A DNA stretch of 64,000 bases from a virus (IMGVR_UViG_3300043446_005051:1-64000); one strand, 5' to 3'; positions 29,739 to 61,054 are shown, numbered from the stretch's first letter. Notes: generated by a model from the letters alone, not told the origin. Numbers and translations: made by a program.

Positions 29739-30932
29739 TTATGCAATAAGAGCATCTCCCTTGATAAAAAGTGTATCTACAATGTTTTGTAGCTGTTGTT
29801 CGATTTTATGACCTCTTTTGTCATTTGAAGGAAAAGCAATGATTCCAAAGGGCTTTTTATATTTTTCATATTCACCCCTTTGAATTAGACCCTTCTCAAG
29901 TCGTTCGTGGTCGTCTTTATGTAGACGTAGAATACGTCCCATTGTTTGAACATAATCTACTACTGATAGATTTCGAAGAATCAATGCGTGAGTCATACCA
30001 TTGATAGAGATGCCTTCTGAAATGATGGAATGGTGAAACAGAATCAGTTTTACATCATCATCATTTCCCATCTGCTCAAGAGTATCAAAGAATACTTGAC
30101 GTGATACTTTATTCTGATTGATTACGCAACCATATTTACTGGTAATGTGAAATACCTGAAAGCCTCGCTCATAGAGTTCATTGAGGAGTTCAGTCTCAGT
30201 AAACATATCCATCATTCTTTGAGTTGTGGGAACTGCAACAAGAATCTTTGGATTTACCTCAATATCATCAATGAAATTGAGAATGTTTTCATCTTCATTT
30301 TCTGAAGATTCATAGGAAACGACTTTAGGTGCAAGAATAAACCCTCCTTCTACAAGCTCCTTAGGTGAAAGAGAGATAATTGTTCCACCATACACATCAG
30401 AGTTTGCCATCGTCTTACGGTCACTTGTATGGCGAGGAGTCGCAGTATAGAAATAACAATTCTTCGCAATTCTAGAAGTTTCTGCTACTCCAACAAAATT
30501 AGCTTCAAATACTGAATGATGAGCTTCATCGAAGATTGCAATATCAATATTTACATTTGATTCATTAATTTTTGAAAGTGACTTGTATGTAGTAAAGATA
30601 ATTTGATGATGTTGAATACGAGTTGTAATATTCGAAATAGTACGAATCATTTCAACATTTGTAGTTCCATTTTCACCCGAATGCGCGTGAAAATAAAATA
30701 CTTTTGAAACATCTTTTAAATGCCTTTGAAATTCATTTGATAGCTGAGATGCAAGAAGAATCTTTGGAGCAACAACAACAATTTTCAGAGGATGAGTGGA
30801 ATTTAAGATTCTTTGTTTAACATCCTCCATAAAGATTACGGTCTTTCCGCCGCCAGTTGGGATCACTAATGTACCTTTGTTATGCTTTTTAAGTGTAATC
30901 AATGCTTTTTGTTGATACTCTCGAAGTTTCAT
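29739..30932 (-). CDS. SF2 (DEAH) helicase, type III restriction ResIII-like
   Basis: LREYQ, PTGGGKT, DEAHH, TATP, ISEGI, QTMGRILR. Confidence 0.93.
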   Translation of the reverse strand: MKLREYQQKALITLKKHNKGTLVIPTGGGKTVIFMEDVKQRILNSTHPLKIVVVAPKILLASQLSNEFQRHLKDVSKVFYFHAHSGENGTTNVEMIRTISNITTRIQHHQIIFTTYKSLSKINESNVNIDIAIFDEAHHSVFEANFVGVAETSRIAKNCYFYTATPRHTSDRKTMANSDVYGGTIISLSPKELVEGGFILAPKVVSYESSENEDENILNFIDDIEVNPKILVAVPTTQRMMDMFTETELLNELYERGFQVFHITSKYGCVINQNKVSRQVFFDTLEQMGNDDDVKLILFHHSIISEGISINGMTHALILRNLSVVDYVQTMGRILRLHKDDHERLEKGLIQRGEYEKYKKPFGIIAFPSNDKRGHKIEQQLQNIVDTLFIKGDALIA

Positions 30933-32124: not shown

Positions 32125-32306
32125 AGAAAAGAATACGACGGTTGAGTGTTGAAAGGTCTCCCTCTCACCTCAGTCATTGTAGCGCAGACTCAGAAAAGCA
32201 ATCAGGATGGTGGACAGTTGAAAAAGCGTCCTCTCTGTAATGCTATTTGCATTAAAAAACTCCTATTCAAATTTGAATAGGAGTTTTAAGTGTTATTCAG
32301 TTTTAG

Positions 32307-32377
32307 TAGGGACACTGGGGATTGAACCCAGACTAACCCGTTATAAGCAGGCCGCTCTACCATTAAGCTATGCCCCC
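32307..32377 (-). tRNA. trnI: tRNA-Ile(UAU)
   Basis: Cloverleaf, acceptor GGGGGCA/TGTCCCT, anticodon loop CT-TAT-AA, no encoded CCA. Confidence 0.9.
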
Positions 32378-32401
32378 ACATAATTTGCTCTAAAAGAGCA
32401 A

Positions 32402-32473
32402 AGCGATAGACGTGATTTGAACACGCAACCGTCTGGATGGAAGCCAGAAGCTCTACCGTTGAGCTACTATCGC
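32402..32473 (-). tRNA. trnG: tRNA-Gly(UCC)
   Basis: Acceptor GCGATAG/CTATCGC, loop CT-TCC-AT, U discriminator. Confidence 0.92.
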
Positions 32474-33008
32474 ATAATTAAAGGAATACTAATGTATTCC
32501 TTTGTATATATCTAAACTAGAGAAGGTATTTCATACTCCACTAGTCTAGAATCGTCCTCGTCATCAAAGTAACCAAGTTCAAGATTCACAAGGTCTTCAT
32601 AATCAACACCTAGAAAGCGAGTCGCGAAATCTTCATAGTCATCGTGAAGAAGATAAGAAAATTCAGACATTTGATCAAGTCCTCCTGTTGTTTCTTGAAC
32701 GTATGTATGTTACCAGCTGTGAAACTTATTGTCAACTATGGAGTGCCAGTACAAAAAGTGACACTTGAAATAATTAAACATCAAACACTTTCTCTGAAAG
32801 AATCAAATCATCAATGAGTTGAATTTCCCAGTTTTCCATATGTTCCATTGTTTGGATGAATTGATAGGTCTGAGTCCAGGCTTGACCTGCATCGAGCAGA
32901 CATTCAAGGTTTTCCATAGATGAATAATCAAAATGAAAAGACATAATAAATTAAAACTATGTAAGTTATTTATATAAAAGCGGAGTAATTACTCCGCTTT
33001 GAACTTAA

Positions 33009-33239
33009 TCAGTCTTCACACTCGTTTAGAAGTGCATCTTCTTTCTTCTTACGCCGCTTTTCTTCAATTAGAAATTTAAGCTCAAGAATATCCTCATTCA
33101 GAATCTCATACTCATCTAACATATTTTCATACTGAAATGAACTAGTACACTTCTTCATTTTCTTTTGAAGTTTATCGAGTTGCTTCTTTTTTACTTTAAG
33201 TTCAGATTCGAGTTCTTTAATGTCTTTAATAATTTCCAT
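33009..33239 (-). CDS. Small coiled-coil hypothetical protein
   Basis: K/E-rich heptads; terminator hairpin at 32977-33000. Confidence 0.6.
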   Translation of the reverse strand: MEIIKDIKELESELKVKKKQLDKLQKKMKKCTSSFQYENMLDEYEILNEDILELKFLIEEKRRKKKEDALLNECED

Positions 33240-33498
33240 AATTTTGTTGAAATTTGACTTATTTATTCAATATCACCGACGAAAGGAATGAATGAAATAG
33301 GAACGGAATACCGTAAAAAGAATAATTCCGCTACTTGCAATTCCAATCATACCCAGAAGAGTAATAAGATTGCCGTATTCAAAAGAAAGAGTTTGAACTT
33401 CCATTTAATTTGGTTGGTTGAACTTAACTAGTTTACAGTAAGATGAGAGTAAAAGGCAAGTAACTGTGACAGCTTGGGAACTGTCACAGTTCACATTA

Positions 33499-33846
33499 TC
33501 AGTTTGAATTCAATGTACGAGTGATTCCAAGCTCCTCTAGACGGGCATCCACTCGATTATTGATGAATGCCTCAATATCATTATCAATAGTCTCCATAAT
33601 GGAAAAAGCAACATCTCGAACTAGATTTGAGCCATATTCCTGGCGAATGAATTGAATAAATCGAGTCTTAAACGCATAATCATTATACGCTAGGTCTTTT
33701 ACAATGTTGAATAATTGGTCAGAATTAATCGATTTCAGTAGCTCGTCTTTACGGGTTTCTACTTCTTCATATAGGTAATTTAGCCCTGTAATTAGATTAT
33801 CAATCTGAAGTAGATTGTCGTTGATAACGTGAGTATCTTGAGACAT
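33499..33846 (-). CDS. Helical hypothetical protein directly downstream of the E1 gene
   Basis: ORF with its own palindrome promoter (33908-33931). Confidence 0.7.
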   Translation of the reverse strand: MSQDTHVINDNLLQIDNLITGLNYLYEEVETRKDELLKSINSDQLFNIVKDLAYNDYAFKTRFIQFIRQEYGSNLVRDVAFSIMETIDNDIEAFINNRVDARLEELGITRTLNSN

Positions 33847-33940
33847 AAATGATGTTTGATTGAGACTTGTACAGTGTAGCAGAGAAGCTGGAAGGGAGAA
33901 TGATTATAGGGACAGTCAAAAAACTGTCCCTGAGTCATAA

Positions 33941-34648
33941 TTAAGAGACGCTAGTCTTCATATTACGAAGGTTGAAGAACATTGAACACTGAGATGGGTC
34001 CAGTGTTCCATCGAGAAGGTTTTGAATGACCATCAGAGTCATACTTGCTGCAAAGAAGTTTGCTGAAATAAGTTGAGGACGACTCGGTGCATTTAATGCA
34101 CAACTTCCCGAATGTGGAATACTATCTTGAGGCTGGTCAATATTTGGATATGCAATAGTTGGATTCATACCAACATTCACATTATCAATTCGGCCCCACC
34201 AGAGAGTTTGACCTCGAACTTCTTCAAGGCCATCGCTATTACCTGGAGTAATATAAAAGAAGTCCTTTCCTTGACGAGTATTATTGATTGCATCAATAAT
34301 CGCTTTACGTGTTGCGTCATTATCTACCGAACAGATAATGACAGGACGCTCTGAATTACGAATCATCGGAATGAAAGTAGATGCAGTGATGAACTGGTCT
34401 TTGCATTCAACATCAGTTAGTCCCTGATAAGAGCAGAAGTCCTTCATTGCTCGTGCTTTATTCATATTGATTTGAGATTCACCCACAATTTGTCGAGTGA
34501 GATTTGAACTCTCGAACGAATCACCATCAATAAAAGTTACCTTTGCTCCTTGAGTGTTCGGATGATATGCAACGAGTCGAGCAAGTGGAGCAGCGAGATG
34601 CCCACCAGTTCCACCCACGCCAATCACAAAGAAATCAGAGAAAAACAT
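33941..34648 (-). CDS. E1/ThiF-family ubiquitin-like activating enzyme (PRTRC ThiF-like)
   Basis: GVGGTGG, IDGDSFESSNLTRQ, NKA, SVDNDATR, candidate catalytic Cys in GSCA...PQLISAN; AGGAGG precedes ATG at 34648. Confidence 0.9.
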   Translation of the reverse strand: MFFSDFFVIGVGGTGGHLAAPLARLVAYHPNTQGAKVTFIDGDSFESSNLTRQIVGESQINMNKARAMKDFCSYQGLTDVECKDQFITASTFIPMIRNSERPVIICSVDNDATRKAIIDAINNTRQGKDFFYITPGNSDGLEEVRGQTLWWGRIDNVNVGMNPTIAYPNIDQPQDSIPHSGSCALNAPSRPQLISANFFAASMTLMVIQNLLDGTLDPSQCSMFFNLRNMKTSVS

Positions 34649-34741
34649 AAACCTCCTGTTGGAACGAATCAATGGTAGCAGACGAAGACCGTCAAAAACA
34701 AAAAGGTGGACAGCTCAAAAACCGTCCACCTACATACAGAA

Positions 34742-35710
34742 TTAAATTTGACCAACTAGATAGTTCTCATCCCTAGATACAAACCATTTTCTATTTACTG
34801 CATCTGGAACTGTTTCATAGCCATAATAAGTACTTCCATTTTTTTCAATTTGAACCTCCTTTGCAGGAATAATCATAATATGTGGAGAATCCTCAAGAGG
34901 TTTATATCCAGCTGAAAGAAGAGTAAAAAATGCTGGAACATCATATTCAGCGTGTACTATGATTATACTATCAATATCTTCTCCATCACATAGAAAATGT
35001 TCAGATTCTAGAAGAGAGAATTCATCACTATTTTTTAGATACCTTAGAGTGTCACAATTGGTTTCAAACGTACCTAGAGGTAGAAGGTCATTATTAAATT
35101 CACTATTAAAGTAGGTTTGAACTACACTTCTGAGATTAGTTGGAGCATTGTTGGACCCCCAGCAAATTCCACCTACTTCATATGCATCCCCAAATACATT
35201 GGAAGCCATAAGCAATCGAGTTGCATAAATTTTATTGTCCAGAGTATATCCTGAACGAAGATATGCTTTATCTGAATCTAAAGACAGATAAGTTCTAAAT
35301 CTCCCATTTCTAAATGAAAGATTAACTTGAAATACCATATCTGCCACATTCATATGAATTGATACATCTTCGGCATTATTCCCCTCTGGGCATTCTTGAC
35401 CTGTATAACCTTCTTCATACACCCAACAATGATTGTCCTCCCCCCCACTCACATCTGTCCAATCAATATCATCATCTTCATCTTTTCGATTGGAAAGGAA
35501 TGAATAACAATTTCGATAGCATCCATCACAAAATTCATTGTAAAATCCATCTGAATCCATTTCAATATCTTGATGAATATCTTTATAGTTGTCTGGCATC
35601 CAAGCATTGATTTTTAGAGAATCTTCTACTTTATAACTAAAGAATTTTGCTCCTTTTGGTAGAAGATGAACATTTACTTTGGGGGGAACAGTTTGAAAAA
35701 TTACAGACAT
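34742..35710 (-). CDS. Prokaryotic E2-like (family D / PRTRC protein B-like) conjugating enzyme with Cys-rich N-terminal region
   Basis: SNVFG...GGICWGSN.....YFNSEFNNDL motif with candidate catalytic Cys; CDGCYRNC...HC...C; start placed downstream of the -10 box (35740 alternative). Confidence 0.72.
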   Translation of the reverse strand: MSVIFQTVPPKVNVHLLPKGAKFFSYKVEDSLKINAWMPDNYKDIHQDIEMDSDGFYNEFCDGCYRNCYSFLSNRKDEDDDIDWTDVSGGEDNHCWVYEEGYTGQECPEGNNAEDVSIHMNVADMVFQVNLSFRNGRFRTYLSLDSDKAYLRSGYTLDNKIYATRLLMASNVFGDAYEVGGICWGSNNAPTNLRSVVQTYFNSEFNNDLLPLGTFETNCDTLRYLKNSDEFSLLESEHFLCDGEDIDSIIIVHAEYDVPAFFTLLSAGYKPLEDSPHIMIIPAKEVQIEKNGSTYYGYETVPDAVNRKWFVSRDENYLVGQI

Positions 35711-35809
35711 TTTGGATGAATTCTGTGTAACTTCAGTCATTGTAGCAGGAAGGGGCGGTGTGGATAAAAAAAGGGGACACCTCAAAAAGTGTCCCCCGAT
35801 ATTACTATA

Positions 35810-36892
35810 TCAACTAGTAGCAAAAGCAGATTCATCAATCTCTTTAGCCGCACTAGTTAGTACATCATAGAGATGGAAGATTTTGTTCAGGTCTTCTGAA
35901 TTCTGATTAATATAGTCATTAATCAGGTCTTCAATCTCCCATAGTTTAATAGTTTTATTCCCTTCTACATTCTCGGTATTTAGAGTGCCATTCTCGTTAA
36001 AAAAGAATGGGTCATCCATATATTGATTGTATCCATCATAATCATTATACTTATAGGTTGCATATTTCTCTAGCCACTTATCATACGAATCTGAATCCCT
36101 ATGGGATTTACCTCCCTTATACTTTACAGGAGAATATTTAATTACAGTTGTAGGAGTACTATAATCCACATATTTTAGAACATCTGGATGAAATGTAACT
36201 TCTGAAATTGGAGTGGCATCAATAAGTTCATCATATTTCAGAAGAAAGCGACGACCATTTCCAACTACGGAAGCTGCAATTGTATATACATTTTTATTTA
36301 CGTCAATACTTCCTACAACTAGATGAATACCAGGGTCTCCTAGCTCATACTTATCGTCAATTCCTGAGAAGAAAGATGGCATAGTATTATGCGAATGACT
36401 AGACCCAACAGGAATCCACCCAGAAGGAGGATAAGATTCAACAACCTCTCCAGTTTCAATGTCAATGGATTCATCAAAGCTATCAATTCGTACAGCGGCT
36501 CCAGATACCTTTTGTTTGGGTACAAGAATCCTATATTTTGATGAATCTTCATCCGAACGAAGAATCCGAATAGAAACTTCAACTTCGTTACTTACTTTAT
36601 TTACAAAGTGAAAACATAGTTTCACCCAACGAGACCAAAGTTCTGCTGGAATTTTATGAATATCAGAATTTAGTTCAAAATGTTCAAGATGCTCTTTTGT
36701 AATTTCTACATTTGCATCTGGGTCTGGACAAGAACGAATATACTTACCCCAAGGCCCTTGATACACCTCAAAACATCCATCCAAGGAAGTGCGAAGAATT
36801 GAAGGAGGAGTATTCACTAGTTCTTCTTCAATCTTGATTTCATTAATTTCAAGAGTATCTTCTTCGACCATAGTTTGAATAGTTTCTGACAT
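35810..36892 (-). CDS. JAB/JAMM metallo-isopeptidase (PRTRC protein A-like)
   Basis: Upstream Glu (NEVEV), PKQKVS, exact H-x-H-x7-S-x2-D motif HSHNTMPSFFSGIDD, GIHLVVG. Confidence 0.9.
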   Translation of the reverse strand: MSETIQTMVEEDTLEINEIKIEEELVNTPPSILRTSLDGCFEVYQGPWGKYIRSCPDPDANVEITKEHLEHFELNSDIHKIPAELWSRWVKLCFHFVNKVSNEVEVSIRILRSDEDSSKYRILVPKQKVSGAAVRIDSFDESIDIETGEVVESYPPSGWIPVGSSHSHNTMPSFFSGIDDKYELGDPGIHLVVGSIDVNKNVYTIAASVVGNGRRFLLKYDELIDATPISEVTFHPDVLKYVDYSTPTTVIKYSPVKYKGGKSHRDSDSYDKWLEKYATYKYNDYDGYNQYMDDPFFFNENGTLNTENVEGNKTIKLWEIEDLINDYINQNSEDLNKIFHLYDVLTSAAKEIDESAFATS

Positions 36893-36937
36893 AATAAAAA
36901 ATAATAAAAGAACTTGGGTATAGAAAATAATTTGTAT

Positions 36938-36974
36938 GAAAAAACCCTCAAAGGTTATGTAAACCAATGAGGGA
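36938..36974 (-). terminator. Intrinsic terminator-like hairpin between the Ubl and JAB genes
   Basis: Minus strand CCCTCA...TGAGGG followed by TTTTTT. Confidence 0.6.
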
Positions 36975-36994
36975 TTATCTTAGTTAGTTAGGAG

Positions 36995-37255
36995 TCAGCC
37001 CTTTTGCTCGCTGTTAGTTGCAGCACGGTAAGATTCACCTGCACGCACAACCTGAGTAGAAGGAACAGCTTCGCCGTTGAGAACGTAACGATTGATACGA
37101 GTTACATCGCCCAGTGAGCTAGCATACTCAGCGTAAAGCTGGGAAACGGTCTTACCAGTGAATTGAGCAGAGTTTAGTGAAACACTCTCTTCGTTGAAGT
37201 AGAGAGTAACAGGGCTCTCGGTGTCAGCTTGACGGATTTGGGAGAAGAAAGACAT
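36995..37255 (-). CDS. Ubiquitin-like (beta-grasp) protein with C-terminal Gly
   Basis: 86 aa; KTVSQL helix start, YVLNGEAVPSTQVVRAGESYR resembles ThiS/MoaD strands; ends EQKG; first gene of the JAB-E2-E1 cluster. Confidence 0.78.
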   Translation of the reverse strand: MSFFSQIRQADTESPVTLYFNEESVSLNSAQFTGKTVSQLYAEYASSLGDVTRINRYVLNGEAVPSTQVVRAGESYRAATNSEQKG

Positions 37256-37908
37256 AGTTGGTACTCAGAATAAAGGACAAAGGGGGATGAAAGAAGTTTG
37301 TGACCTCTCTCACCGACTCACATACCGTAGCAGAGGACCGCTCGGAATGGGAGGTGAGGTGGACAGTTCAGAAACCGTCCGATTGGTGATGAAGAAAAGA
37401 GGTTTCAGCTCTCTTCCCTCTCTCACCGACTCCATCAGATTAGCTCATCTGGCCCGTCTCTGGAGTGAACAGTGGACACTTCAAAAAGTGGCATTCGGGT
37501 AATTAAAAACTCACTTTTCAATTTCCCAATTTACATCCTCAGTCATTTTTACCCAAAATGACTGAGAATTCCGAATTGGTTTTAAATGATATGAACCTGA
37601 TTTAGTTTCAAGAAGTTCACAAGATTGTAGCCCGAGCATTCGCCTATCGAAATAATCTTCAGCTTCTGCTGTCTTGGGTTTGATCGTAATAAACTTCTTC
37701 TTCATTTTCATAAACAAACATCCAATCAGAGGGTTCAGTTTCAGTGAGAACTTCAAAAGAGTTCTCATATAGGTCAAAGAACTCACATTCTTCGACCTGT
37801 GAATTTATCATAAAAGAGAAGGACATCTCTCATAATGAAAAAGACCTCTTGAGTCTACCAGCTAACTCAAGAGGTCTCGGGGTGTTGTGTGCCAGTTTGA
37901 AAACTGGC

Positions 37909-38598
37909 TTAGAATTGATGAAGCTGTCTGGAATTTACATCGTATATGGATAATTTACCATTCGCATCCCCGCAACAACTATCTAATACAATTGATTTGT
38001 TGTTTAAATCAATTGTTAAATTTCTATAATGCCCTGCAACTCGAATAAAAGATTGCTCTTGATTATTTTGAGTCCACCATTCTATTCTATTTCTTTTTAA
38101 GTCTTGAGTTCCATATAGAAATTGATGCTTATGGTCTTTCTTAATTGCACGAATGAAGTGTTCTTCTTCATATTGAGGAACTTTGATTTCATCACTAAAG
38201 TAAGCGTGAGCGCATCGGAACTCTACATCGTAGATGTCTTTAAATACAATTCCAAACGGCTGACGAATTAACCAATCATAAAGGTCATCTAATGAAATGT
38301 GATTTGATAATTCAGAGATAGTAGTATCCAACCCATTGTTGAGTAAAATTTGATTTCCCCTTAAGTATCGAATTAATTTATCTTGATGATTACTTTGCAG
38401 TACAATTGCATTTAAATTCAATTCGGCTTCTTTAACCAGCTCATAAACTCCAAAAGAATCTGAATAGGAATTCTTGGAATCAAACAAATCTCCGAGAAAA
38501 ACTACTCTTGAGTTTTTAATTTCCTTTTGAATGAATTTAAGCGCAGCTTTAAGATTCTTTGCTTGAGAATGCACATCCCCGATGAGTACATAATTCAT
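37909..38598 (-). CDS. Metallophosphoesterase (Ser/Thr phosphatase / ApaH-like)
   Basis: IGDVH, LGDLFD, SNHQ, CAHA, VAGH, LDSCC. Confidence 0.88.
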   Translation of the reverse strand: MNYVLIGDVHSQAKNLKAALKFIQKEIKNSRVVFLGDLFDSKNSYSDSFGVYELVKEAELNLNAIVLQSNHQDKLIRYLRGNQILLNNGLDTTISELSNHISLDDLYDWLIRQPFGIVFKDIYDVEFRCAHAYFSDEIKVPQYEEEHFIRAIKKDHKHQFLYGTQDLKRNRIEWWTQNNQEQSFIRVAGHYRNLTIDLNNKSIVLDSCCGDANGKLSIYDVNSRQLHQF

Positions 38599-38830
38599 TT
38601 TCTTCGAACATATAATCTATCTATACTAGCACATTCACCAAGAAAACGAAAAAAAAGAGGACACTTTCTGAAGTGTCCTCTTCACTATAGATTAGAGCCG
38701 TCTCTAAATCCAAAGATATATCCAATGTAAATTCCGGCAAAAAATGCAACGAAAAGATAAAGGCTTCGAGCAAGTTGTTGAGTTACTTCTGTAAGTTCAG
38801 GATTCATTTCAATTTAATTTATAATGAAAA

Positions 38831-38902
38831 AGCCCCATGATGGAAATTGAACCATCCTTTCCGCTTTACAAGAGCGGTACATCGCCACTATGTTTATGAG
38901 GC
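38831..38902 (-). tRNA. trnT: tRNA-Thr(UGU), atypical
   Basis: Acceptor GCCTCAT/ATGGGGC, anticodon stem CCGCT/AGCGG, loop CT-TGT-AA; A at position 8 and an 8-nt T loop. Confidence 0.8.
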
Positions 38903-38911
38903 AGGGTTAAA

Positions 38912-39187
38912 TTAATCTACAGGAAGACAATCTGGATTTATATATTCAAGCTCATACATTAAAGGATGTGCTTCTTCTACTGCTAGATAACTTGAATATA
39001 AGTATATCTCTTCATCTGTATATCTTTTATTTCGAGAAGCTTCTTCAATGACTTCTGGATTATCTTCTTCTATTTTGGGTAATTCATCAAATGTATAAGG
39101 TATTTCTTGAATAAAATACATTTTTACAATAAAACTTTCAAGTTGAGTATCAATCCAACGATAGCCAATGCTAAGTTTGTATTTCAT
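38912..39187 (-). CDS. Conserved cyanophage hypothetical protein
   Basis: IVKMYFI..IP.TFDELP...YL..EE.HPL pattern. Confidence 0.65.
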   Translation of the reverse strand: MKYKLSIGYRWIDTQLESFIVKMYFIQEIPYTFDELPKIEEDNPEVIEEASRNKRYTDEEIYLYSSYLAVEEAHPLMYELEYINPDCLPVD

Positions 39188-39208
39188 TCGAGAAAGAACT
39201 TATACATC

Positions 39209-39733
39209 TTATCTATTTAGATAAGAGATAGGTAAATATAAAGTTCCGTACTTCTCAAATACATCTTTAAATCGTTTTAAATCTTTACCTAGATATATGA
39301 ATGCCGATTGAAAAGGTGCAGCACTTTTACCATTTCCAAATTTAAGTCTTTTATTGATTGCAATCCAAGGATATTCCGAAACCGAGTTCCACCATTTTGT
39401 AGATACATCTAATTTAATTAGTAAAATTAATTCCTTAGAATGACCTAATTCATATTGACGAACTGCATATGGAACCCATAATTTACTTTCACTATATGGA
39501 TGATTCATAAATACGCTTTCTGCAGTCCATTTATGAGCTAATCCATTTGTTTCTTCAGTATAAACTCTTTTAGCTGGAATATTTGGATGAATATCTGAAT
39601 CTGAACAAGGGTCTAAATCAAGTTGATGATTGAAGAACGTAAGAACATCATTTACAATTTCTTGAGGAGTATTCCAACAATCGTGACGTGTTCCAGTGGT
39701 AGAGGTTAGAGCTTTAAGTGATAAAGATGGCAT
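39209..39733 (-). CDS. Phage Dam-type DNA N6-adenine methyltransferase
   Basis: W.TP, LDLDPCS, NGL...W, FMNHPYS (motif IV variant), RLKF, APF.SA. Confidence 0.85.
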   Translation of the reverse strand: MPSLSLKALTSTTGTRHDCWNTPQEIVNDVLTFFNHQLDLDPCSDSDIHPNIPAKRVYTEETNGLAHKWTAESVFMNHPYSESKLWVPYAVRQYELGHSKELILLIKLDVSTKWWNSVSEYPWIAINKRLKFGNGKSAAPFQSAFIYLGKDLKRFKDVFEKYGTLYLPISYLNR

Positions 39734-40071
39734 AGAATTAATTCTTAATCATATATTCAACAGTAGTTGCAATATCATTCATTGCATCTCTTAAATCAGG
39801 TCTTTGTCCAGATTCTTGTTTAAGAATCGGTCTATCATCTTTAACAAGAGTCCATCTCCATTGAGACATAGACTCACACCACCATAAGTTGATTTTCATT
39901 AATTTTATCGTATTCAGTTTTGATTCGGTTCAATAAATCACTCAATTCTCCTTTTAGAGGTTCAGTTAAAAATGCTTCATTTGCAAAAATATAAAAATCT
40001 ATTGCATCATAAGCAATTTTACGGTCTCGTTGAGACATTAATGTCATAACTTAATTTAGATGTTGTAAATA

Positions 40072-40196
40072 TTTAATAAGAACTCCAAACCTTATTTCTC
40101 CTGTACTCAGGAGTCCACAAATGGCAGAGGAGAAAACCTCCAAAGTTTGTTCAGGGTTCTTATTTTGGAAGACCCGAACATTTCCAGTTCTTCCAA
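40072..40196 (-). ncRNA. Candidate structured RNA directly 3' of tRNA-Asn
   Basis: TTGGAAGA/TCTTCCAA hairpin, then an AATAAGAAC/GTTCTTATT-closed multibranch with GGAG/CTCC and CTCCTG-AGTA-CAGGAG arms. Confidence 0.45.
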
Positions 40197-40269
40197 CTCC
40201 CCCAGTCCGCCTCGAACGAACAACCCCAGTGTTAACAGCACCGTGCTCTACCAATTGAGCTATAGGGGA
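40197..40269 (-). tRNA. trnN: tRNA-Asn(GUU)
   Basis: Acceptor TCCCCTA/TGGGGGA, loop CT-GTT-AA, G discriminator. Confidence 0.93.
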
Positions 40270-40351
40270 ATGATGGAGTAAGTGTATATAAGTCTCATAA
40301 GGACTTATCAGGGACTTACCCTCTATCATAGTATATATATTACATCAGTTT

Positions 40352-40777
40352 TTAGATTGTGTCAAGAGGGATTTCCAAATAATTTTCTGCTAAATGTATT
40401 TTATTCTTTTGATTATTTTTTGGAGCAGATAATCTTAAATTGAATGTTTTATTGCATTCTTGTGGATTTACATAATAACATTTATCAGTATCGGGGCAAT
40501 ATACGCACATTATATCAATTTCATTTTTATCATAATCTTGTGTATGAGTTCCGTTCTTATCCGCCCAACAAGTTCTAAAAGAAACTTCTATTTTATCATT
40601 TTTTGCTGTTCTATATTTAACCTGTATTCTTAAAAACTTTCCATCTTTATATACAACAAGGTCAAATGGAGAATGTTCTGTATGAGGAGTAAGTATTAAA
40701 TATCCCTTTTCATACAGGTCAAGTTGTGCCTTTAATACCCCCAAATCTCCTTTATTTTTAGTATGATGTTCTCTCAT
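40352..40777 (-). mobile_element. PD-(D/E)XK homing endonuclease (I-Ssp6803I-like family), free-standing between tRNA genes
   Basis: TKNKGDLG...G...PFDLVV...RIQVKYR...Y...EID; TATAAATA late promoter near 40799-40806. Confidence 0.85.
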
Positions 40778-40838
40778 AAAATTTAAATGTCTTATAAGTA
40801 TTTATAAGACTAACAACTTACACATATGTTAGTTAAAA

Positions 40839-40911
40839 CAGGCGTATCAGGATTCGAACCTGAGATGAGGAGGTAGAAGCTCCTAGTGATAATCCACTTC
40901 ACCATACGCCC
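40839..40911 (-). tRNA. trnR: tRNA-Arg(UCU)
   Basis: Acceptor GGGCGTA/TACGCCT, loop CT-TCT-AC, GTTCGAATC T arm. Confidence 0.92.
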
Positions 40912-40917
40912 ATAATA

Positions 40918-40993
40918 GACCTCCAGGTTTGTGCATCGTTGAGAGGCATAGGAGGGGTGGGACTTAAACGACGTTTGGACCGCCGTTGCCCAT
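40918..40993 (-). ncRNA. Candidate ~75-nt GC-rich two-domain RNA in the tRNA-Arg leader
   Basis: Starts just after TTGACA-N17-TAAATT; GGGC-AACGGCG/CGTCGTT-GTCC and CCTCC..TGC/GCA..GGAGG stems. Confidence 0.5.
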
Positions 40994-41066
40994 AAAAGTA
41001 ATTTATCAGATGACCCCAACTTTGTCAACTGTATTGTGCCAGTTGCAAAAGTGGCTTTTTGATATT

Positions 41067-41456
41067 TTATTTAGGATATCGAATATATGCATTACTTATT
41101 TCAAAATTACGAGTTTTACCTTTATTTGGTACAAATCCGTGTCCTGAATAAAACTTTTTAAGTTTCTCTTTATAATTCTTTTCTGGAGCTTGGTCTAATG
41201 ACATAGAAGCTCCAATTTTATCTGCGTGTTTTGTAAGCCCTTTCATAATTCGTCCTCCTACACCTTTACCTCTAAGATGCTTGGGTACCCATATATCGTG
41301 AACTTGAATGTTTGGTTTTCCTTTAAATTCTTTTTTTGAAAGATACAAATTTAAACCTTGATAACCAGGTCGTTTTTCCCATTTTCTTGAAATAGTTTTA
41401 TGTGCGTCAGGCTTCGCAGATTTAGCTTCTTTTATGAATTGCTTAAAAGTTTTCAT
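41067..41456 (-). CDS. GNAT acetyltransferase with an internal-head-protein-like leader
   Basis: IWVPKHLRGKGVGGRIM (motif A), LKKFYSGHGF (motif B); N-terminus MKTFKQFIKEA. Confidence 0.85.
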   Translation of the reverse strand: MKTFKQFIKEAKSAKPDAHKTISRKWEKRPGYQGLNLYLSKKEFKGKPNIQVHDIWVPKHLRGKGVGGRIMKGLTKHADKIGASMSLDQAPEKNYKEKLKKFYSGHGFVPNKGKTRNFEISNAYIRYPK

Positions 41457-41463
41457 AGTCGGT

Positions 41464-41907
41464 TCAGGTTAAATAAGACCTTAACTTATAAACAAAGACA
41501 CCGTGAGCTTCCATTAAATCTTGAACAAGATTTGCAGTGGCGTAACTTCTTTGATTTTCAGCTTCTTCAGAAATATCTTTTAACAATTCAACAATCTTTT
41601 GATTATCACTCAACAATTGTTGAACCATTCCTTTTGCATCAATAACTTGATTACCATTCGCTGGGCCATCAATAGATGAGACTTCAACCATTCGAGTCAT
41701 TGTTGACACAGGTCGAATATTTAAATATCGCATATGTTCTGAAATTCTATCAACCTCCTCAAACATTGCTTCATATTGAGCACCAAATAATTCATGAAGT
41801 TGTGGAAAATCAGTTCCAGTTACATTCCAATGATAGTTCCAAGTTTTTTGAAATAAAACAAATAAAGATGCTTGAGTATCAGAAAGTAATTTGTATAGTT
41901 TTTCCAT
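41464..41907 (-). CDS. dps: Dps ferritin-like DNA protection protein
   Basis: HWNVTG..FPQLHELF..QYE.....D.ISE ferroxidase signature; late promoter TATAAATA upstream. Confidence 0.92.
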   Translation of the reverse strand: MEKLYKLLSDTQASLFVLFQKTWNYHWNVTGTDFPQLHELFGAQYEAMFEEVDRISEHMRYLNIRPVSTMTRMVEVSSIDGPANGNQVIDAKGMVQQLLSDNQKIVELLKDISEEAENQRSYATANLVQDLMEAHGVFVYKLRSYLT

Positions 41908-41924
41908 TATACTTTTTTTATTAT

Positions 41925-43020
41925 TTATAAAGATTGCTCTCTGGTAACACGTTTAAAGTCTTTAAGAACTCCATCAACGAAATGAAGTCTACATCTAGGC
42001 CAATCATGCCAATCTCCATCCCACGTTGCAGGATATACTTCTATATATTTGGTGATTTTATGAGGAACATATCTTCCATTTTTTCCAGTAGGGATCCATT
42101 CAAAATTTAAAAATTTTGATTTTTCATTATATCGTTCATCATTTTTTGAAATCTCTTCAAATGTATGAGTACCAATATAATCAGGTCTCCATAGCTGACC
42201 TGCAGGGTCCAACCAATAGAGAGTCATTGTGCCGCCAATTCCATATTCAATGTCTTTTGTCTGGCAATATACGTTTGTAAACTCTTCTCCTAGATTATAG
42301 GAAGAGCGAAAATCATCGAACATACCCAATTACGAATCCTCCTGTTTTGAACTAAAATAAATTTTATAGTAGCGTTTTTTCATACCTTCTATTAAATTCA
42401 TATCATCTTCAAATCCCATATATTTAAGTAATTGATAAGACCCTTCTAATTCACTAATAAGTCTTAATACATTAGTGGGGGACCTTTCGAGTCCCCCAAA
42501 AGAGTAAATATTCATACTAAATCATTTTCAATATCCAATTCATTAATATGAACTTTTTCTCTTTTTGAATAGAGTTTTGAATAACTACAAATTTTACACT
42601 TGGGATTTCCACAATCTAAAGGGTCTTGTTTAAAGATTCGTCCAAAAGAAAGAGAATTGTCTGGAATAAATTCAAAATGTTTGTGTAACTTTTTCCACTT
42701 ATTTTGAAGTCGTTTTGCTTGATGACGTTGATAAGCAGTTTTAGCCATTCATTGAAGGTTTAGCTTTATTTAGAACTCACAAAAGTATTAATTTTATTTG
42801 CTAGTACTTCAATCTTTTCATAAGAAGGAAATTCTGGATATGCCATTTTCACTGTATTATGTGGATTCTCATTCCACAAAGAAACAATAGAATACTCTGC
42901 TTGATATTCAGACTCCGCAAGAGCCTGAGCTTGCTCAAAAATTTTAAATCGAAGTTCGTAAGGTGTCATAATTTTATTCCTGTGTGTATGATGTGTGAAA
43001 TTTGCTAATACGATTAGCAA
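41925..43020 (-). other. Four small conserved phage hypothetical genes (41925-42329, 42330-42515, 42512-42748, 42766-42969)
   Basis: Coupled ORFs; motifs MGMFD...QTKD, CGNPKCKIC, MTPYELRF. Confidence 0.65.
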
Positions 43021-43094
43021 TACCCGAGGTCGGATTCGAACCGACGACTGCTCGATTTTAAGTCGAGAACCTCATTCCGCTGGGTCACTCGGGC
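43021..43094 (-). tRNA. trnL: tRNA-Leu(UAA) with short variable loop
   Basis: Acceptor GCCCGAG/CTCGGGT, loop CT-TAA-AA, variable region only CAGTC, A discriminator. Confidence 0.88.
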
Positions 43095-43098
43095 AAAA

Positions 43099-43722
43099 AG
43101 GGCTTTAGTGCGTCTATTCCCTGGTGCATCTGTGTTATTCCAAGCTGGAACATAATCGCACATCTCGTCGTATCCGAGTTCAGATGCTTCCCCACTCATT
43201 TAATCTAATGAGCAAATCAAATAATTGAATTCACCTTCTATGCTTGCGACCCTGATTTGATCAGAATCTAGCCTCGTACATCTTCTAACTTTCTATACCG
43301 TGAATATAGTCTGTCAGAGGTCTTACGACACAATCACCCATTTTCACAGATGACGTTAGGGGCTTCGGCTTCATCAATTGCAGTTTGCCTAATGTACCAC
43401 CCGAAGGAACGATACACGGTGCTTTCACGGCGATTCCTTAACCGAAGAATCGTTTACCGTCCTATTTCTGGGATAACTACTGTAATTCACCAGTCATATA
43501 AGAAGCATTCACTATTGGCGTTGTGCTCACTCTCATATGCTACTTACGGTATCTGCTTCCGCCAAGAAGAATTAACCGATAGAAGATTGGTGGAGTTGGC
43601 CGAGGCAATCACCTCTAGTCTCCATCTTCCTTTCCCTTATACATCTTACGATGCCTGACCCTCATAGATTAGAAGTCAGTTTTCTAAGACCTTTTCAATC
43701 TTAGGGGAGGGACAATCCCGAT
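43099..43722 (-). ncRNA. Large (~620 nt) ornate non-coding RNA, ROOL/GOLLD-class candidate
   Basis: Between tRNAs, own TTGACA-N17-TATGGT promoter (43729-43757), raised GC, no credible ORF, more than 10 hairpins including GNRA/UUCG loops, 5'/3' pairing. Confidence 0.72.
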
Positions 43723-43867
43723 AAGACAACCATAGAGTAAAACTCTTGAGTTGTCAATGGTTCTGGAAAGACTTGAACTTTCTTCAGCCCCTTATAAGGA
43801 GGCGGCCTTAACCCATAGGCGACAGAACCAATAAGACAATCATAAGACCTAAATCTCAGATTGTCAA
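43721..43867 (-). promoter_or_regulatory. Two related 37-bp spacers (43721-43757, 43831-43867), each a sigma70 promoter and a hairpin
   Basis: TTGACA-N17-TATG(G/A)T-TGTCTTAT with GACAA(C/T).../...(G/A)TTGTC self-complementarity. Confidence 0.8.
43758..43829 (-). tRNA. trnI: tRNA-Ile(UAU), second divergent copy
   Basis: Acceptor GGTTCTG/CAGAACC, loop CT-TAT-AA. Confidence 0.88.
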
Positions 43868-43868
43868 G

Positions 43869-43950
43869 TCCTCGTTTTCAGACTCGAACTGAAACTCCTT
43901 TCGGAAGTGGTTTTTGAGACCACTGCGGCTACCGATTACGCCAAACGAGG
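43869..43950 (-). tRNA. trnL: tRNA-Leu(CAA)
   Basis: Acceptor CCTCGTT/AACGAGG, loop CT-CAA-AA, long variable arm TTCC-GAAA-GGAG. Confidence 0.92.
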
Positions 43951-44047
43951 TATTAAGTGAACGTGGCCTCAACCACCTTCATAGATTACCACTCACTCAG
44001 ATGGAAGTCAAGAGATGTGTGCCAGTTGAAAAACTGGAACCTTAATA

Positions 44048-44365
44048 TCAGTCTCTTCTCCTCCAACCATCATCGTTATCCCGATGAAAGAAATCAGCAA
44101 TGTCATCAGGTGAATCAAAATGAGTTCGGTGATTAGATGGGTCGGGGTCTCCTAAATCCAAAGCATTTAAAAACCCATCTAAACTATCTTCTGCCATACT
44201 TGGATTATCAGATAATCTTCTTGCTTGTCGCAACATTGTAGCAGCAGAGGGATTCGCCTTTGAGAGTTTTTCGGCCCATATCATATCTTCTAATGAGACT
44301 TCGTTGTGTGATGATATATTTTGGCAGATTTTTTCCAAACGAAGTCTATATGCAGTTGATAACAT
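44048..44365 (-). CDS. Conserved cyanophage hypothetical protein
   Basis: MLSTAYRLRLE.IC...DMIWAEKL...LGDPDPSNH...W..RD. Confidence 0.75.
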   Translation of the reverse strand: MLSTAYRLRLEKICQNISSHNEVSLEDMIWAEKLSKANPSAATMLRQARRLSDNPSMAEDSLDGFLNALDLGDPDPSNHRTHFDSPDDIADFFHRDNDDGWRRRD

Positions 44366-44393
44366 TTAAAATCTCCATATTAAACTTATTTAG

Positions 44394-45047
44394 TTATCTC
44401 ATATTAAGAGGAGTTAATCTAGATGATCTTCTTTTCTTCTTTTGCCTTGGAGAAAGAGGGCGACCTACACTTGCATATTGCCTATTGGAGTCATCAGTAT
44501 CTCCAAATCTATGATATTTATAAATGTCTTTATGAGTGTCTGATGCTGGAGTATTTGATACTATACTATGAGATGGGAACCGGTCTTCAACATTTTTTTT
44601 ATAGATATTTTTAGCCTTATTTGCAAGTCTTATTCTTTCTTTTTGAGACAATCCACTAACACTATGAGACACATTCCAATCTACCTCGTGATGGGGCTTC
44701 CCTTCAATATCTTTAAGCCGAGTGATTGTATAATATATTCCACTTCCTGGATGTTCTATTTGTGTTACTTTTTTATCTTTGGATTGATGTACCATTACAC
44801 CAGAATCAGAATGTGGGTTCACTGAGGGATTATCAGAACCGTGTTTTACTTTTTTTTCTAAAGTCCTAGATAATCGAAGTCTTCTTGACTTTACACTTTC
44901 TGGAGTTCTCGGTTCGTTTGGAGTTCTTTCAAGCTTCTCTTTTGATTTTTGCACTGGAGATTTACCTGAAGGTAAAGGTTCATCTGGTGGATAATATTTT
45001 TCAAGTATAATATTTGTTTTATCTATAAATTCTTGAAAAGTAATCAT
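44394..45047 (-). CDS. Basic protein with an internal-head-protein-like leader
   Basis: MITFQEFIDK...LE; K/R/H-rich. Confidence 0.6.
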   Translation of the reverse strand: MITFQEFIDKTNIILEKYYPPDEPLPSGKSPVQKSKEKLERTPNEPRTPESVKSRRLRLSRTLEKKVKHGSDNPSVNPHSDSGVMVHQSKDKKVTQIEHPGSGIYYTITRLKDIEGKPHHEVDWNVSHSVSGLSQKERIRLANKAKNIYKKNVEDRFPSHSIVSNTPASDTHKDIYKYHRFGDTDDSNRQYASVGRPLSPRQKKKRRSSRLTPLNMR

Positions 45048-45244
45048 TTTTGTTCGTTCCCTAAAGCATTAATCCAGACTTTTTTATAATCATAATCTCC
45101 AAATAAAAACTCATCTGCATTTGCAGCTTCACGATATGCATTTAGAATATCCTCTTCACACCATTCATCATAATTTGGATCTTGTGAGATTAGTTTTGAG
45201 TCCATTTTTTTATTTATGATTTTTTGATATTTATTTTTTAATTA

Positions 45245-45940: not shown

Positions 45941-45979
45941 TTCTACTGAACTATTTTAAGTATTTATCAGTTTTATGAA

Positions 45980-46055
45980 TCCGAATAACAGGATTTGAAC
46001 CTGTATTTTTCCTGCTCCCAAAGCAGGTGCCATAACCAAGTTAGGCGATATTCGG
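45980..46055 (-). tRNA. trnP: tRNA-Pro(UGG)
   Basis: Acceptor CCGAATA/TATTCGG, loop TT-TGG-GA. Confidence 0.92.
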
Positions 46056-46082
46056 GTAGACAACACTATATATGTTGTCAAA

Positions 46083-59487: not shown

Positions 59488-59507
59488 AATGTTATAAAAA
59501 ATAATAA

Positions 59508-60680: not shown

Positions 60681-60685
60681 TTCTC

Positions 60686-61048: not shown

Positions 61049-61054
61049 AATATA

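Follow-up and report, generated by a model that had tools for sequence, protein, structure and literature searches.

A run of adjacent genes in a large freshwater phage raises the question of whether a bacterial virus can own a ubiquitin-like (Ubl) conjugation system, and what it would use one for. To our knowledge, research on comparable Ubl-conjugation kits has dealt solely with anti-phage defences of bacteria, and a literature search found no published description of the phage cassette. We analysed a 64,000-nucleotide stretch (the window) of a phage record of 89,426 bp, estimated to be 42% of a genome. The identity, conservation and order of the parts, together with a predicted E1–Ubl interface, could be established computationally, and their best reading, which we regard as probable, is a phage-owned five-gene system of the PRTRC or 'operon type 6d' kind that conjugates a Ubl to proteins.

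Gene content and recurrence of the cassette

The original prediction, made from the window alone, had placed four co-oriented genes here and named them as a Ubl, a JAB peptidase, an E2 and an E1. Four adjacent minus-strand ORFs were found where it had put them, and every motif string reported for them was present in the translations. Start codons were refined from relatives (ATG 36889 for JAB; ATG 35710 for the E2-like protein, with an alternative ATG at 35740; ATG 34648 for E1, with AGGAGG upstream). Together with a fifth gene, all on the minus strand, the cassette reads:

36995–37255, minus strand: Ubl, a predicted 86-aa ubiquitin-like modifier ending E-Q-K-G (ORF ends ...NSEQKG)
35810–36889, minus strand: JAB/JAMM metallopeptidase, 359 aa (ORF 36967/36889..35810, containing GSSHSHNTMPSFFSGIDD)
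34742–35710, minus strand: E2-like protein, 322 aa (ORF 35785/35710..34742, containing ASNVFGDAYEVGGICWGSN...YFNSEFNNDL)
33941–34648, minus strand: E1, a predicted single-domain ThiF/MoeB-type adenylating enzyme, 235 aa (ORF from 34672, containing GVGGTGG and HSGSCAL)
33499–33846, minus strand: p115, a conserved, fast-diverging 115-aa protein whose homologue follows E1 in relatives

The order Ubl–JAB–E2–E1–p115 recurred in 12 of 14 IMG/VR phage loci, the remaining two being cut by contig ends, so that the synteny is found in independent phage contigs. The same order was present in a metagenome-assembled genome (MAG) contig and in a phage contig of 63% G+C, and an unannotated E2–JAB–E1 trio was found in the cultured Bacillus jumbo phage vB_BceM_WH1. 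Because the four ORFs have relatives, recur in a fixed order and include a ThiF match above its cut-off, they are real genes rather than chance reading frames. The fifth gene had been overlooked in the original prediction. A p115 homologue, 25–48% identical to the window copy, follows E1 in every IMG/VR locus with the cassette and in L020; p115 itself had no family match, and it is a possible fifth component.

Component proteins and the predicted E1–Ubl complex

The four identities originally claimed were supported, that of the E2 as an E2-like protein, by a β-grasp model for Ubl, JAMM residues for JAB, structural and profile matches for the E2-like protein and a ThiF score for E1. Ubl had no match in Pfam, NCBIfam, PHROG or PADLOC. 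Its AF2 model (pLDDT 77.8) has the order β-β-α-β-β-β with a disordered tail at residues 83–86, and nearly all of the matches listed by Foldseek against the PDB were SUMO, NEDD8, Ubl or TGS β-grasps (probability 1.00, TM 0.45–0.63, E values from 4.9e-3, none below 1e-3). Thirty-five cluster representatives were recovered as relatives, and E-x-K-G, including G86, is invariant in all 36 rows of the Ubl alignment (A2). This Gly is followed by no residue in 15 rows, one in 15 and two in 6; the trailing residues are variable and resemble those of Ubl precursors. Moderate fold evidence and a tail with a conserved Gly thus suggest a β-grasp modifier, the fold on which the original prediction depended.

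E1 scored 43.3 bits against Pfam ThiF (PF00899; cut-off 28.1). Its Gly-rich loop (G10-x-G12-G13-x-G15-G16) is invariant in the E1 alignment (A6), as are D41, D43, R52, Q53, K64, D109, N110, D111 and C183. Score, loop and Asp/Arg residues assign it, by sequence, to the ThiF/MoeB/E1 family, in agreement with the predicted Rossmann protein with a downstream Cys; it has no separate catalytic-Cys domain. In NCBIfam its best and only full-length match was PRTRC_ThiF (E 5.3e-14, positions 15–239 of 245), and it also matched ThiF/MoeB models.

A predicted complex paired E1 with Ubl, as the original prediction implied, at a score of 0.76, against 0.00 for the best of three controls; 58 of 80 solved complexes attained this mark, as did 2 of 110 mismatched pairs. 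Runs shared at least 93% of contacts, and the partner's pLDDT was at least 85. Ubl residues 81–86 contacted E1 residues 12–15 (the P-loop), 107–111 (VDND) and 135–139, an interface of the expected geometry in which the Ubl tail lies on the E1 nucleotide loop; E1 Cys183 is absent from the residues listed there. Solved structures of E1-type/sulfur-carrier complexes exist, and the score may reflect likeness to them.

The JAB protein has its peptidase flanked by a conserved N-terminal domain (about 100 residues) and a variable acidic tail. Its metal site, E...HxH-x7-S-x2-D, is complete: E104, H165, H167, S175 and D178 are invariant among eight sequences (alignment A5), bearing out the exact JAMM motif claimed for it, as are R33, W47, R52, W85 and W88 in the N-terminal part. 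Database matches were below cut-off, both to Pfam Prok-JAB (PF14464; E 2.7e-4, 21.3 bits against a cut-off of 25) and to the best NCBIfam model, PRTRC_A (E 1.3e-3, 18.3 bits against 101.8).

The 322-aa protein is the weakest link of the whole assignment, and we call it E2-like from its model and profile matches. The model (pLDDT 92.5) combines a UBC-like core with an inserted stretch bearing four Cys and a β-rich C-terminal domain. The protein has 83 cluster representatives at E ≤ 0.001. Its core N...CWG...FNNDL is invariant, and alignment A1 shows invariant C61, C64, C95, C107, N171, V172, C183, W184, N206 and D208; in the UBC/E2 fold the catalytic Cys comes shortly after a loop with a conserved Asn, an arrangement that N171 and C183 may match. 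The evidence for an E2 fold of this gene, as originally proposed, was mixed. In a wide VIA-align search, 26 of the first 27 matches were titled E2/UBC enzymes (Z 3.3–4.4, rmsd 3.1–4.6, 72–128 aligned residues), headed by 2y9m_A (rmsd 3.8, 109 aligned), whose Z of 4.4 nevertheless falls short of the level that VIA-align calls meaningful; Foldseek of the model against the PDB found nothing, as did a profile search of PDB sequences. The window copy had no match at E ≤ 1 in Pfam and none in NCBIfam, PHROG or PADLOC. A link to Pfam Prok-E2_D (PF14460) came from relatives: 3 of 45 distant ones matched it, two above cut-off, and hhalign aligned profile A1 to two Prok-E2_D carriers at 96.8% (E 2.3e-10) and 94.1%. 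The nearest ESM Atlas cluster, with Prok-E2_D on 13% of its members (score 0.87), is a lead only.

Palindromes, hairpins and transcripts

The palindrome motif TTTYTGARSTGTCC occurs six times in the window, against 0.36 expected, and these are the only matches in the 89-kb record; four of them lie in the cassette. The elements around the genes are:

37474–37487 and 37361–37374, minus strand: two TTTYTGARSTGTCC copies upstream of the Ubl gene, found as motif matches
36939–36973, minus strand: hairpin with U6 just past the Ubl stop codon (−16.1 kcal/mol, z −3.98, 0 of 200 shuffles as good)
35772–35797, minus strand: palindrome/hairpin with U-run in the JAB–E2 gap, a TTTYTGARSTGTCC copy (−18.3 kcal/mol, z −5.14)
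34704–34731, minus strand: palindrome/hairpin with U-run in the E2–E1 gap, a TTTYTGARSTGTCC copy (−18.8 kcal/mol, z −6.23)

The consensus scan, which allows only shorter loops, did not pick up the hairpin at the Ubl stop, and CTGCTACAAT stands after the JAB–E2 hairpin. All three cassette hairpins look like intrinsic terminators. Of the upstream copies, only the proximal one shows a fold, and a weak one (−10.6 kcal/mol, z −2.69, against z −0.19 for the distal copy); neither is followed by a U-run. The original prediction had read these palindromes as the phage's own promoters and hence the genes as assimilated. The motif is real, but its intergenic copies are terminator-like, and since only six copies exist in the record, four of them in the cassette, it does not emerge as a genome-wide phage promoter.

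Metatranscriptome contigs from three runs in two studies lie over the Ubl gene, one of them covering 36978–37452. A single run had broader coverage, with a depth of 18 for the Ubl contig and of 2.4–5.9 for the other pieces; since DNA may be present in RNA libraries and genes cannot be ranked by contig depth, this greater depth is a weak hint.

Relatives, proposed mechanism and alternatives

The closest published description is operon type 6d (Iyer, Burroughs & Aravind 2006, PMC1779556), a predicted system comprising a Ub-like protein, a JAB with a JAB-N domain, an E1-like and an E2-like protein and a fast-diverging α-helical protein. The phage cassette likewise has five components: a small Ubl with a conserved C-terminal Gly, a JAB whose conserved N-terminal domain with invariant Arg and Trp resembles JAB-N by description only, a stand-alone E1 that lacks a rhodanese domain, an E2-like protein with a conserved Cys and no HPN His, and a small, rapidly diverging extra protein, p115, also compared by description only. 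It differs in its setting, in lytic-type large phages rather than in bacteria or plasmids, and in its E2. In 6d E2s, a His that follows the conserved Cys is absolutely conserved (PMC1779556), whereas no His downstream of C183 is invariant in 81 sequences of the E2-like alignment; only H277, far off in the C-terminal domain, reaches 90%, and the region in which 6d E2s carry the His is occupied by N206 and D208. The phage protein also adds the four-Cys insertion and the extra C-terminal domain.

PRTRC models were the best NCBIfam matches of the phage E1 and JAB, and distant members of the E2-like family match PRTRC_B and Prok-E2_D. Membership of PRTRC itself was rejected, all scores falling far under their cut-offs (52.1 against 144.75 for E1, 18.3 against 101.8 for JAB, and 32.7 and 29.5 against 131.45 for distant relatives of the E2-like protein). 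Unlike PRTRC, moreover, the cassette includes a Ubl and an E2-like protein with no NCBIfam match in the window copies, and no ParB_N lies in the 89-kb record (estimated 42% of the genome). Judged by these similarities, the cassette and the bacterial PRTRC and 6d operons are relatives that have diverged very far.

We infer the thioester chemistry, the protein targets, the role of the JAB and the dosage logic as follows. A homodimeric ThiF-type E1 would bind Ubl and adenylate its C-terminal Gly86; the activated Ubl would pass to a cysteine as a thioester, either to E1 Cys183 and then E2 Cys183 or straight to the E2; and the E2-like protein would move it onto amino groups of target proteins, its extra domains (the four-Cys insertion and the C-terminal β domain) perhaps picking substrates with no separate E3. 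The JAMM peptidase would trim the one or two post-Gly residues of many relatives, take the tag off again, or both. A terminator-like hairpin after each gene would yield more Ubl than enzyme message. Such a system may serve host take-over, counter-defence or the exclusion of rival phages.

Bil and type II CBASS share the logic of a Ubl or Ubl-like C-terminus, an E1, an E2 and a JAB peptidase, and they belong to hosts, whereas the cassette is phage-borne. According to PMC10557695, BilA has a conserved Gly followed by non-conserved residues, as in the phage Ubl family, BilD combines inactive and active adenylation domains with a CYS domain in one multidomain E1, and Cap2 is an E2–E1 fusion. In PADLOC, E1 gave partial matches to a Cap2-type E1–E2 (1.5e-11) and to BilD (1.2e-5). 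Bil was rejected as a class for the cassette, given a single 235-aa E1 domain, the partial BilD match and three other proteins with no PADLOC match. Type II CBASS with Cap2/Cap3, in which the fusion protein acts on a CD-NTase, was also rejected: in the phage a hairpin separates the E2 gene from the E1 gene, and the Cap2-type matches span only E1 residues 15–80. Bub (6E/DUF6527), which likewise has E1, E2, Ubl and peptidase in one operon, uses Tyr/Ser oxyesters and a serine protease and has no catalytic cysteines according to PMC11601596; the phage cassette has invariant Cys residues and a JAMM peptidase.

Two alternatives involve these systems. The phage could use conjugation as its own defence or exclusion device and, in the manner of Bil, tag proteins of rivals that infect the same cell, such as their tail proteins. 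The same parts list and the weak E1 matches to BilD and Cap2-type models would fit, but Ubl, JAB and E2 lack PADLOC matches, the E1 is a single domain against the multidomain BilD described in PMC10557695, and the cassette has held its position in phages that have diverged, as would be expected of a core function in infection more than of a defence island that can be exchanged; we consider this unlikely. The proteins could instead be decoys, with JAB stripping Ubl-type conjugates of host CBASS type II or Bil while an excess of Ubl, E1 and E2 jams those pathways without useful tagging. Bacterial Ubl pathways are anti-phage (PMC11601596), the JAB catalytic residues are intact, and the Ubl gene is followed by a terminator-like hairpin of its own and gave the deepest RNA contig. 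A decoy would not, however, require E1 adenylation residues and an E2 Cys that are invariant family-wide; the E1–Ubl fit is specific in the model, and JAB has no sequence likeness to the Cap3 or BilC models of PADLOC, making this reading improbable.

More improbable again is a sulfur-carrier pathway, in which E1 would adenylate the small protein for thiocarboxylation and transfer of sulfur to, for example, tRNA or a cofactor, and JAB would only expose the Gly. ThiS/MoaD–JAB–E1 sulfur operons of this kind have been described (PMC1779556), E1 matches ThiF/MoeB models, 10 phage tRNA genes lie near the cassette, and the ESM Atlas clusters nearest Ubl (score 0.91) carry ThiS on 21–44% of members. 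Against it, the cassette never lacks an E2-like protein with its invariant Cys, and Pfam found no rhodanese domain in E1. The original argument from a lack of ParB and sulfur-transfer genes nearby held for ParB_N, rhodanese, MoaE and ThiG, all four of which are absent from the entire record of 89,426 bp, which amounts to an estimated 42% of a genome. A Ubl/JAB pair acting in virion or other phage assembly, with E1 and E2 as accessories, has precedent in tail-assembly pairs such as lambda TAPI and the JAB of TAPK, yet TAPI-type systems lack E1 and E2 (PMC1779556) and the cassette's neighbours are a helicase, a phosphatase, a methyltransferase and tRNAs rather than tail-assembly genes, and we deem it the most improbable reading.

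Within the favoured reading of protein conjugation, a bolder and tentative proposal is that tailed phages of very different lineages (contigs of about 36% and 63% G+C, and Bacillus jumbo phages) tag host proteins offensively early in infection, possibly defence or regulatory proteins, with the E2 acting as a built-in E3 through substrate-selecting domains of its own and the JAB setting the level of tagging. If true, a bacterial virus would for the first time be known to own a ubiquitin-type protein-tagging system, and the PRTRC/6d class would gain its first functional reading. As for the virus itself, originally called a lytic cyanophage, the fragment has no psbA-type gene; the sole basis for that attribution is the freshwater habitat and a helicase 40–44% identical to those of cyanomyoviruses.

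Gene content and distribution of the cassette

The original prediction described a four-gene Ubl–JAB–E2–E1 conjugation cassette, and its observation was confirmed: four adjacent minus-strand ORFs lie where claimed, in a window that covers bases 1-64000 of an IMG/VR virus record of 89,426 bp (estimated completeness 42%), and all of the quoted motif strings are present. With gene starts refined by comparison with relatives, and with a fifth gene included, the set is as follows.

37255..36995, minus strand, Ubl, 86 aa
36889..35810, minus strand, JAB, 359 aa
35710..34742, minus strand, E2-like protein, 322 aa (alternative ATG at 35740)
34648..33941, minus strand, E1, 235 aa (AGGAGG precedes the ATG)
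33846..33499, minus strand, p115, 115 aa, the fifth gene, after E1

For the identification of the cassette as Ubl–JAB–E2–E1 plus p115, support is good for three parts and reasonable for the E2. It is a phage-borne version of the predicted PRTRC/6d-like kind, and protein conjugation, which we favour moderately, is its most likely chemistry.

The same synteny had been proposed as something to seek in other phage genomes, and a profile scan of IMG/VR revealed 14 loci (several near-identical, comprising about ten distinct sequence types), 12 of which have the order Ubl–JAB–E2–E1–p115; the remaining two are truncated at contig ends and consistent in their visible part. Identity to the window was 48–69% for Ubl, 41–67% for JAB, 36–48% for E2, 65–71% for E1 and about 26–47% for p115, and contigs bearing the cassette reached 284 kb. 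The Ubl–JAB–E2–E1 order was also kept in a 90-kb viral contig of 63% G+C (IMGVR_UViG_3300035670_000105), whose Ubl likewise ends SESKG and whose identity to the window was 56% for JAB, 45% for E1 and only 24% for E2. Species-representative prokaryote genomes yielded no E2-like relative in a search with one short pattern, which does not prove absence, and a short-pattern search for E1 yielded one relative, on a 4-kb MAG contig that bears the whole phage cassette in the same order. In the two closest relatives of the window, repeat-rich ORFs sharing an N terminus (...IYxYKITF...YYYGVHKEK...) sit between Ubl and JAB and after E1 (L002, 1854-2741 and 5842-6840; L004, 5834-6643). These ORFs, absent from the window, presumably resemble mobile genes of the homing-endonuclease type.

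Among GenBank phages, the cassette had no match at the DNA level, tblastn with the E2-like protein and Ubl returned nothing from 50,697 records, and weak E1 matches came from 5 records only. A related trio is present in the cultured Bacillus phage vB_BceM_WH1 (LC597490.1, 181723-184817), in which gp216 is annotated as ThiF and two proteins encoded beside it, annotated as hypothetical, correspond to the E2-like protein (gp214; hhalign 91%, E = 1e-6) and to JAB (gp215; 96%, E = 2.4e-9). Neither gp213 nor gp215 matched the E2 profile and gp213 did not match the JAB profile; gp212 did not match the Ubl profile, and thus no Ubl was found in this phage. E1-like matches were also seen in two other Bacillus jumbo phages and in Salmonella phage Arash. 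Fifty plasmid records contained E1 relatives at 27–31% identity, and in one Leptolyngbya plasmid consecutive genes encode E2-like, MPN and ThiF proteins, adjoining a phage gene; there, the E2 match was modest (80.7%) and the JAB match weak (43%), and a neighbouring 283-aa protein had no match.

Features of the component proteins

No family model in Pfam, NCBIfam, PHROG or PADLOC matched Ubl, and its identity was approached through alignment and structure. In an alignment of 36 rows (33 of 35 cluster representatives, the window copy and two locus translations), E-x-K-G was invariant in 36/36, and the glycine was followed by no residue in 15, by one in 15 and by two in 6. A conserved glycine with disposable trailing residues looks, at the level of sequence, like a Ubl precursor needing trimming; the same pattern is reported for BilA, a conserved glycine and then non-conserved residues (PMC10557695). 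The 86-aa protein had been expected to fold as a beta-grasp, and its AlphaFold model (pLDDT 77.8) has the corresponding beta-beta-alpha-beta-beta-beta strand order with a disordered tail. Nearly all of the Foldseek PDB matches listed were SUMO, NEDD8, Ubl or TGS domains (probability 1.00, TM 0.45–0.63), with E-values from 4.9e-3 and none below 1e-3 among the matches listed. ThiS was found on 21–44% of members of the nearest ESM Atlas clusters, at a score of 0.91 that serves as a lead only.

The E1 scored above the Pfam ThiF cut-off (43.3 bits against 28.1). PRTRC_ThiF was its best NCBIfam model and the sole one to align end to end (E = 5.3e-14, profile positions about 15–237 of 245), at 52.1 bits, far under the cut-off of 144.75. 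PADLOC returned partial matches to Cap2-type E1–E2 proteins (1.5e-11, residues 15–80 only) and to BilD (1.2e-5), a Pfam scan found no rhodanese domain, and the E1 profile had no sequence relative among PDB sequences. Residues invariant in 11 phage sequences comprise the Gly-rich nucleotide loop, D41/D43, R52-Q53, K64, D109-N110-D111 and Cys183, the last within the string GSC.

Prediction of a Ubl–E1 complex, which had been proposed, was carried out with two E1 copies and one Ubl, both entered as alignments. The complex scored 0.76 (best of three controls, 0.00), a mark that 58 of 80 solved complexes attained, as did 2 of 110 mismatched pairs; because solved structures exist for complexes of the E1/modifier type, the pass signifies likeness to an E1/modifier pair and is not proof of binding. 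Runs agreed in at least 93% of contacts, with partner pLDDT of at least 85. In the predicted complex, Ubl tail residues 81–86 contact E1 residues 12–15 (the Gly-rich loop), 107–111 (S-V-D-N-D) and 135–139, placing the modelled tail where a C terminus for adenylation should lie.

JAB matched Prok-JAB and PRTRC_A weakly (21.3 bits, cut-off 25; 18.3 bits, cut-off 101.8), and its profile found nothing useful among PDB sequences. Its JAMM site is complete and invariant in 8/8 sequences (E104, H165-x-H167, S175, D178). Across the same alignment, an N-terminal domain of ~100 residues is highly conserved, with invariant R33, R52, W47, W85 and W88, and the C-terminal third, which is acidic, varies. Two related phage contigs (L012, 4739-5986; L013, 4744-5998) have the JAB gene in two ORFs of 141 aa and 193 or 185 aa, separated by a gap of about 240–270 bp; the split could be due to an intervening element, to a frameshift or to faulty assembly.

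The E2-like protein is the least secure of the assignments and was tested hardest. On its own, the 322-aa protein had no match in Pfam, NCBIfam, PHROGs or PADLOC, its profile gave only a chance-level match to PDB sequences, and a confident model built from its own alignment (pLDDT 92.5) retrieved nothing from the PDB with Foldseek and one weak row from BFVD (a 241-aa viral protein; probability 0.95, E = 1.2e-2). Its nearest ESM Atlas clusters are 94–100% viral (score 0.87, a lead only). Exhaustive comparison of the model with 48,161 chains by VIA-align left every Z below 5; of the first 27 rows, 26 were titled ubiquitin-conjugating enzymes (Pex4p, UbcH5, Ubc13, UBE2G2, UbcH7 and others) at Z 3.3–4.4, a level that can reflect a common arrangement, such that the evidence is the coherence of the list and not the score (rmsd 3.1–4.6, 72–128 residues aligned, model residues about 9–240).

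The protein has 83 full-length relatives. A second, independent line, from sequence, came from an all-against-library phmmer search, which retrieved 75 relatives. Of 45 distant ones, 3 matched Pfam Prok-E2_D, two of them above cut-off (P0178, 42.7 bits; P0185, 40 bits), and hhalign linked the family profile to this pair with probabilities of 96.8% (E = 2.3e-10) and 94.1%, respectively, over the stretch NVFG...GICWG...P.NL...YF..PFNNDL. Both matched PRTRC_B weakly (32.7 and 29.5 bits; cut-off 131.45). The proposal of an E2 fold in 34742-35710 gains from the coherent E2 list and the Prok-E2_D profile link, and is held back by a best Z of 4.4 and the empty Foldseek search of the PDB.

Across the window copy and 80 of the 83 relatives, C61, C64, C95, C107, N171, V172, C183, W184, N206 and D208 are invariant. 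We read residues roughly 15–50 and 115–227 as a UBC-like core whose putative active site contains Asn171 and Cys183, split by a four-Cys insertion that is probably zinc-binding and followed by a beta-rich domain (238–322); Cys183 of this protein may superpose exactly on the E2 catalytic cysteine. Such an architecture, in which a UBC-like core carries both a four-Cys insertion and an additional domain, would be new and might reveal how substrate choice works in systems that have no E3.

Relation to bacterial Ubl systems

The closest likeness is to operon type 6d of Iyer et al. 2006 (PMC1779556). That type combines an E1-like protein with a Ub-like protein whose C-terminal glycine is conserved; its JAB has an N-terminal domain in which Arg and Trp are conserved, its E2-like protein lacks the HPN histidine and has an absolutely conserved histidine downstream, and a helical protein that diverges rapidly completes the set. 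The phage cassette agrees point for point with this composition as described there, except that its E2-like protein has no invariant downstream histidine. Because PRTRC scores were far below cut-offs and the record contains no ParB, we call the cassette PRTRC-like and not a member. An equation of type 6d with Bil was considered and dropped, as type II Bil corresponds to operon type 6C (PMC10557695; PMC1779556). The cassette differs from type II Bil (6C), whose E1 is multidomain (PMC10557695), from Cap2/Cap3, which has an E2–E1 fusion, and from Bub, which uses oxyester chemistry and a serine protease (PMC11601596).

Recent work established that bacterial Ubl/E1/E2/JAB operons (CBASS type II, Bil and Bub; PMC11601596 and PMC10557695) are functional conjugation systems deployed against phages; a complete, conserved, phage-owned set would put Ubl-conjugation chemistry in the virus's hands too. 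No description of a phage-encoded Ubl–E1–E2–JAB cassette was found in the literature searched, a collection with few subscription journals, and this negative is no proof of absence. Among the papers listed as mentioning PRTRC, none appeared to address the function of the PRTRC/6d class, and the phage cassette would offer a handle on this class, predicted in 2006. The related E2–JAB–E1 trio in a cultured Bacillus phage makes experiments feasible.

Local control elements and the phage

The motif TTTYTGARSTGTCC was enriched in the window (6 matches against 0.36 expected), and the 89-kb record holds the same 6 in total, 4 of them within the cassette. As to the proposed wiring of the cassette into the phage's own palindrome promoters, these data do not prove that it belongs to a genome-wide promoter set. 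The only copies outside the cassette are at 32212-32225 and 38665-38678, one of them on the plus strand and so opposed to the surrounding genes; a relative has the motif at other positions. The two intergenic copies form 11–12-bp hairpins, each with a U-run behind it (-18.3 and -18.8 kcal/mol; z -5.1 and -6.2), and a different hairpin with U6 stands after the Ubl gene (-16.1 kcal/mol, z -4.0). All three resemble intrinsic terminators. A CTGCTAC(A/C)AT element lies 3' of both intergenic hairpins, making re-initiation after each hairpin possible, and a similar CTGCTACGGT lies 3' of the proximal TTTYTGARSTGTCC copy upstream of the Ubl gene. Both copies upstream of that gene lack a U-run, and one of them forms no hairpin. 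We read the palindromes as local, cassette-level control that would favour the Ubl message.

Metatranscriptome contigs from three runs in two studies covered the Ubl gene. In the run that covered more of the cassette, depth was 18 for the Ubl contig (36978-37452) against 2.4–5.9 over JAB, E2 and p115 pieces, values that cannot rank genes, in libraries that may contain DNA. E1 and parts of E2 and JAB were uncovered, which is not evidence of silence.

The original prediction took the virus for a lytic cyanophage. The helicase at 29739-30932 had 419 tblastn matches in GenBank phages, 414 of them named Synechococcus, Prochlorococcus or cyanophage (identity 40–44% among the 15 matches listed), and near-identical DNA occurred in runs of 12 studies labelled freshwater, freshwater sediment, aquaculture, estuary or reservoir, including two rows that may be the source sample. 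Helicase likeness and habitat support a T4-like freshwater phage distantly related to cyanomyoviruses; a cyanobacterial host was not shown but is plausible, and no psbA-type gene was found in the 89-kb record.

Genes near the cassette encode, among others, a NinI-like phosphatase, a DNA methyltransferase and ten tRNAs. The NinI-like Ser/Thr phosphatase (37909-38598) and a small 66–91-aa protein (37511-37786) lie upstream of the Ubl gene, and occupy the same place in the two closest relatives; they were not seen there in more distant loci. The ten tRNA genes, all on the minus strand, span 32306-46157 around the cassette and include two tRNA-Ile(UAU) genes (32306-32377 and 43757-43830). Farther along, 51039-63938 holds a 2449-aa ORF and, after it, genes for three RCC1-like-repeat proteins and a tail-fibre-like protein; the RCC1-like matches are to the PHROG 'regulator of chromosome condensation', some match tail proteins too, and the region is probably a host-recognition module.
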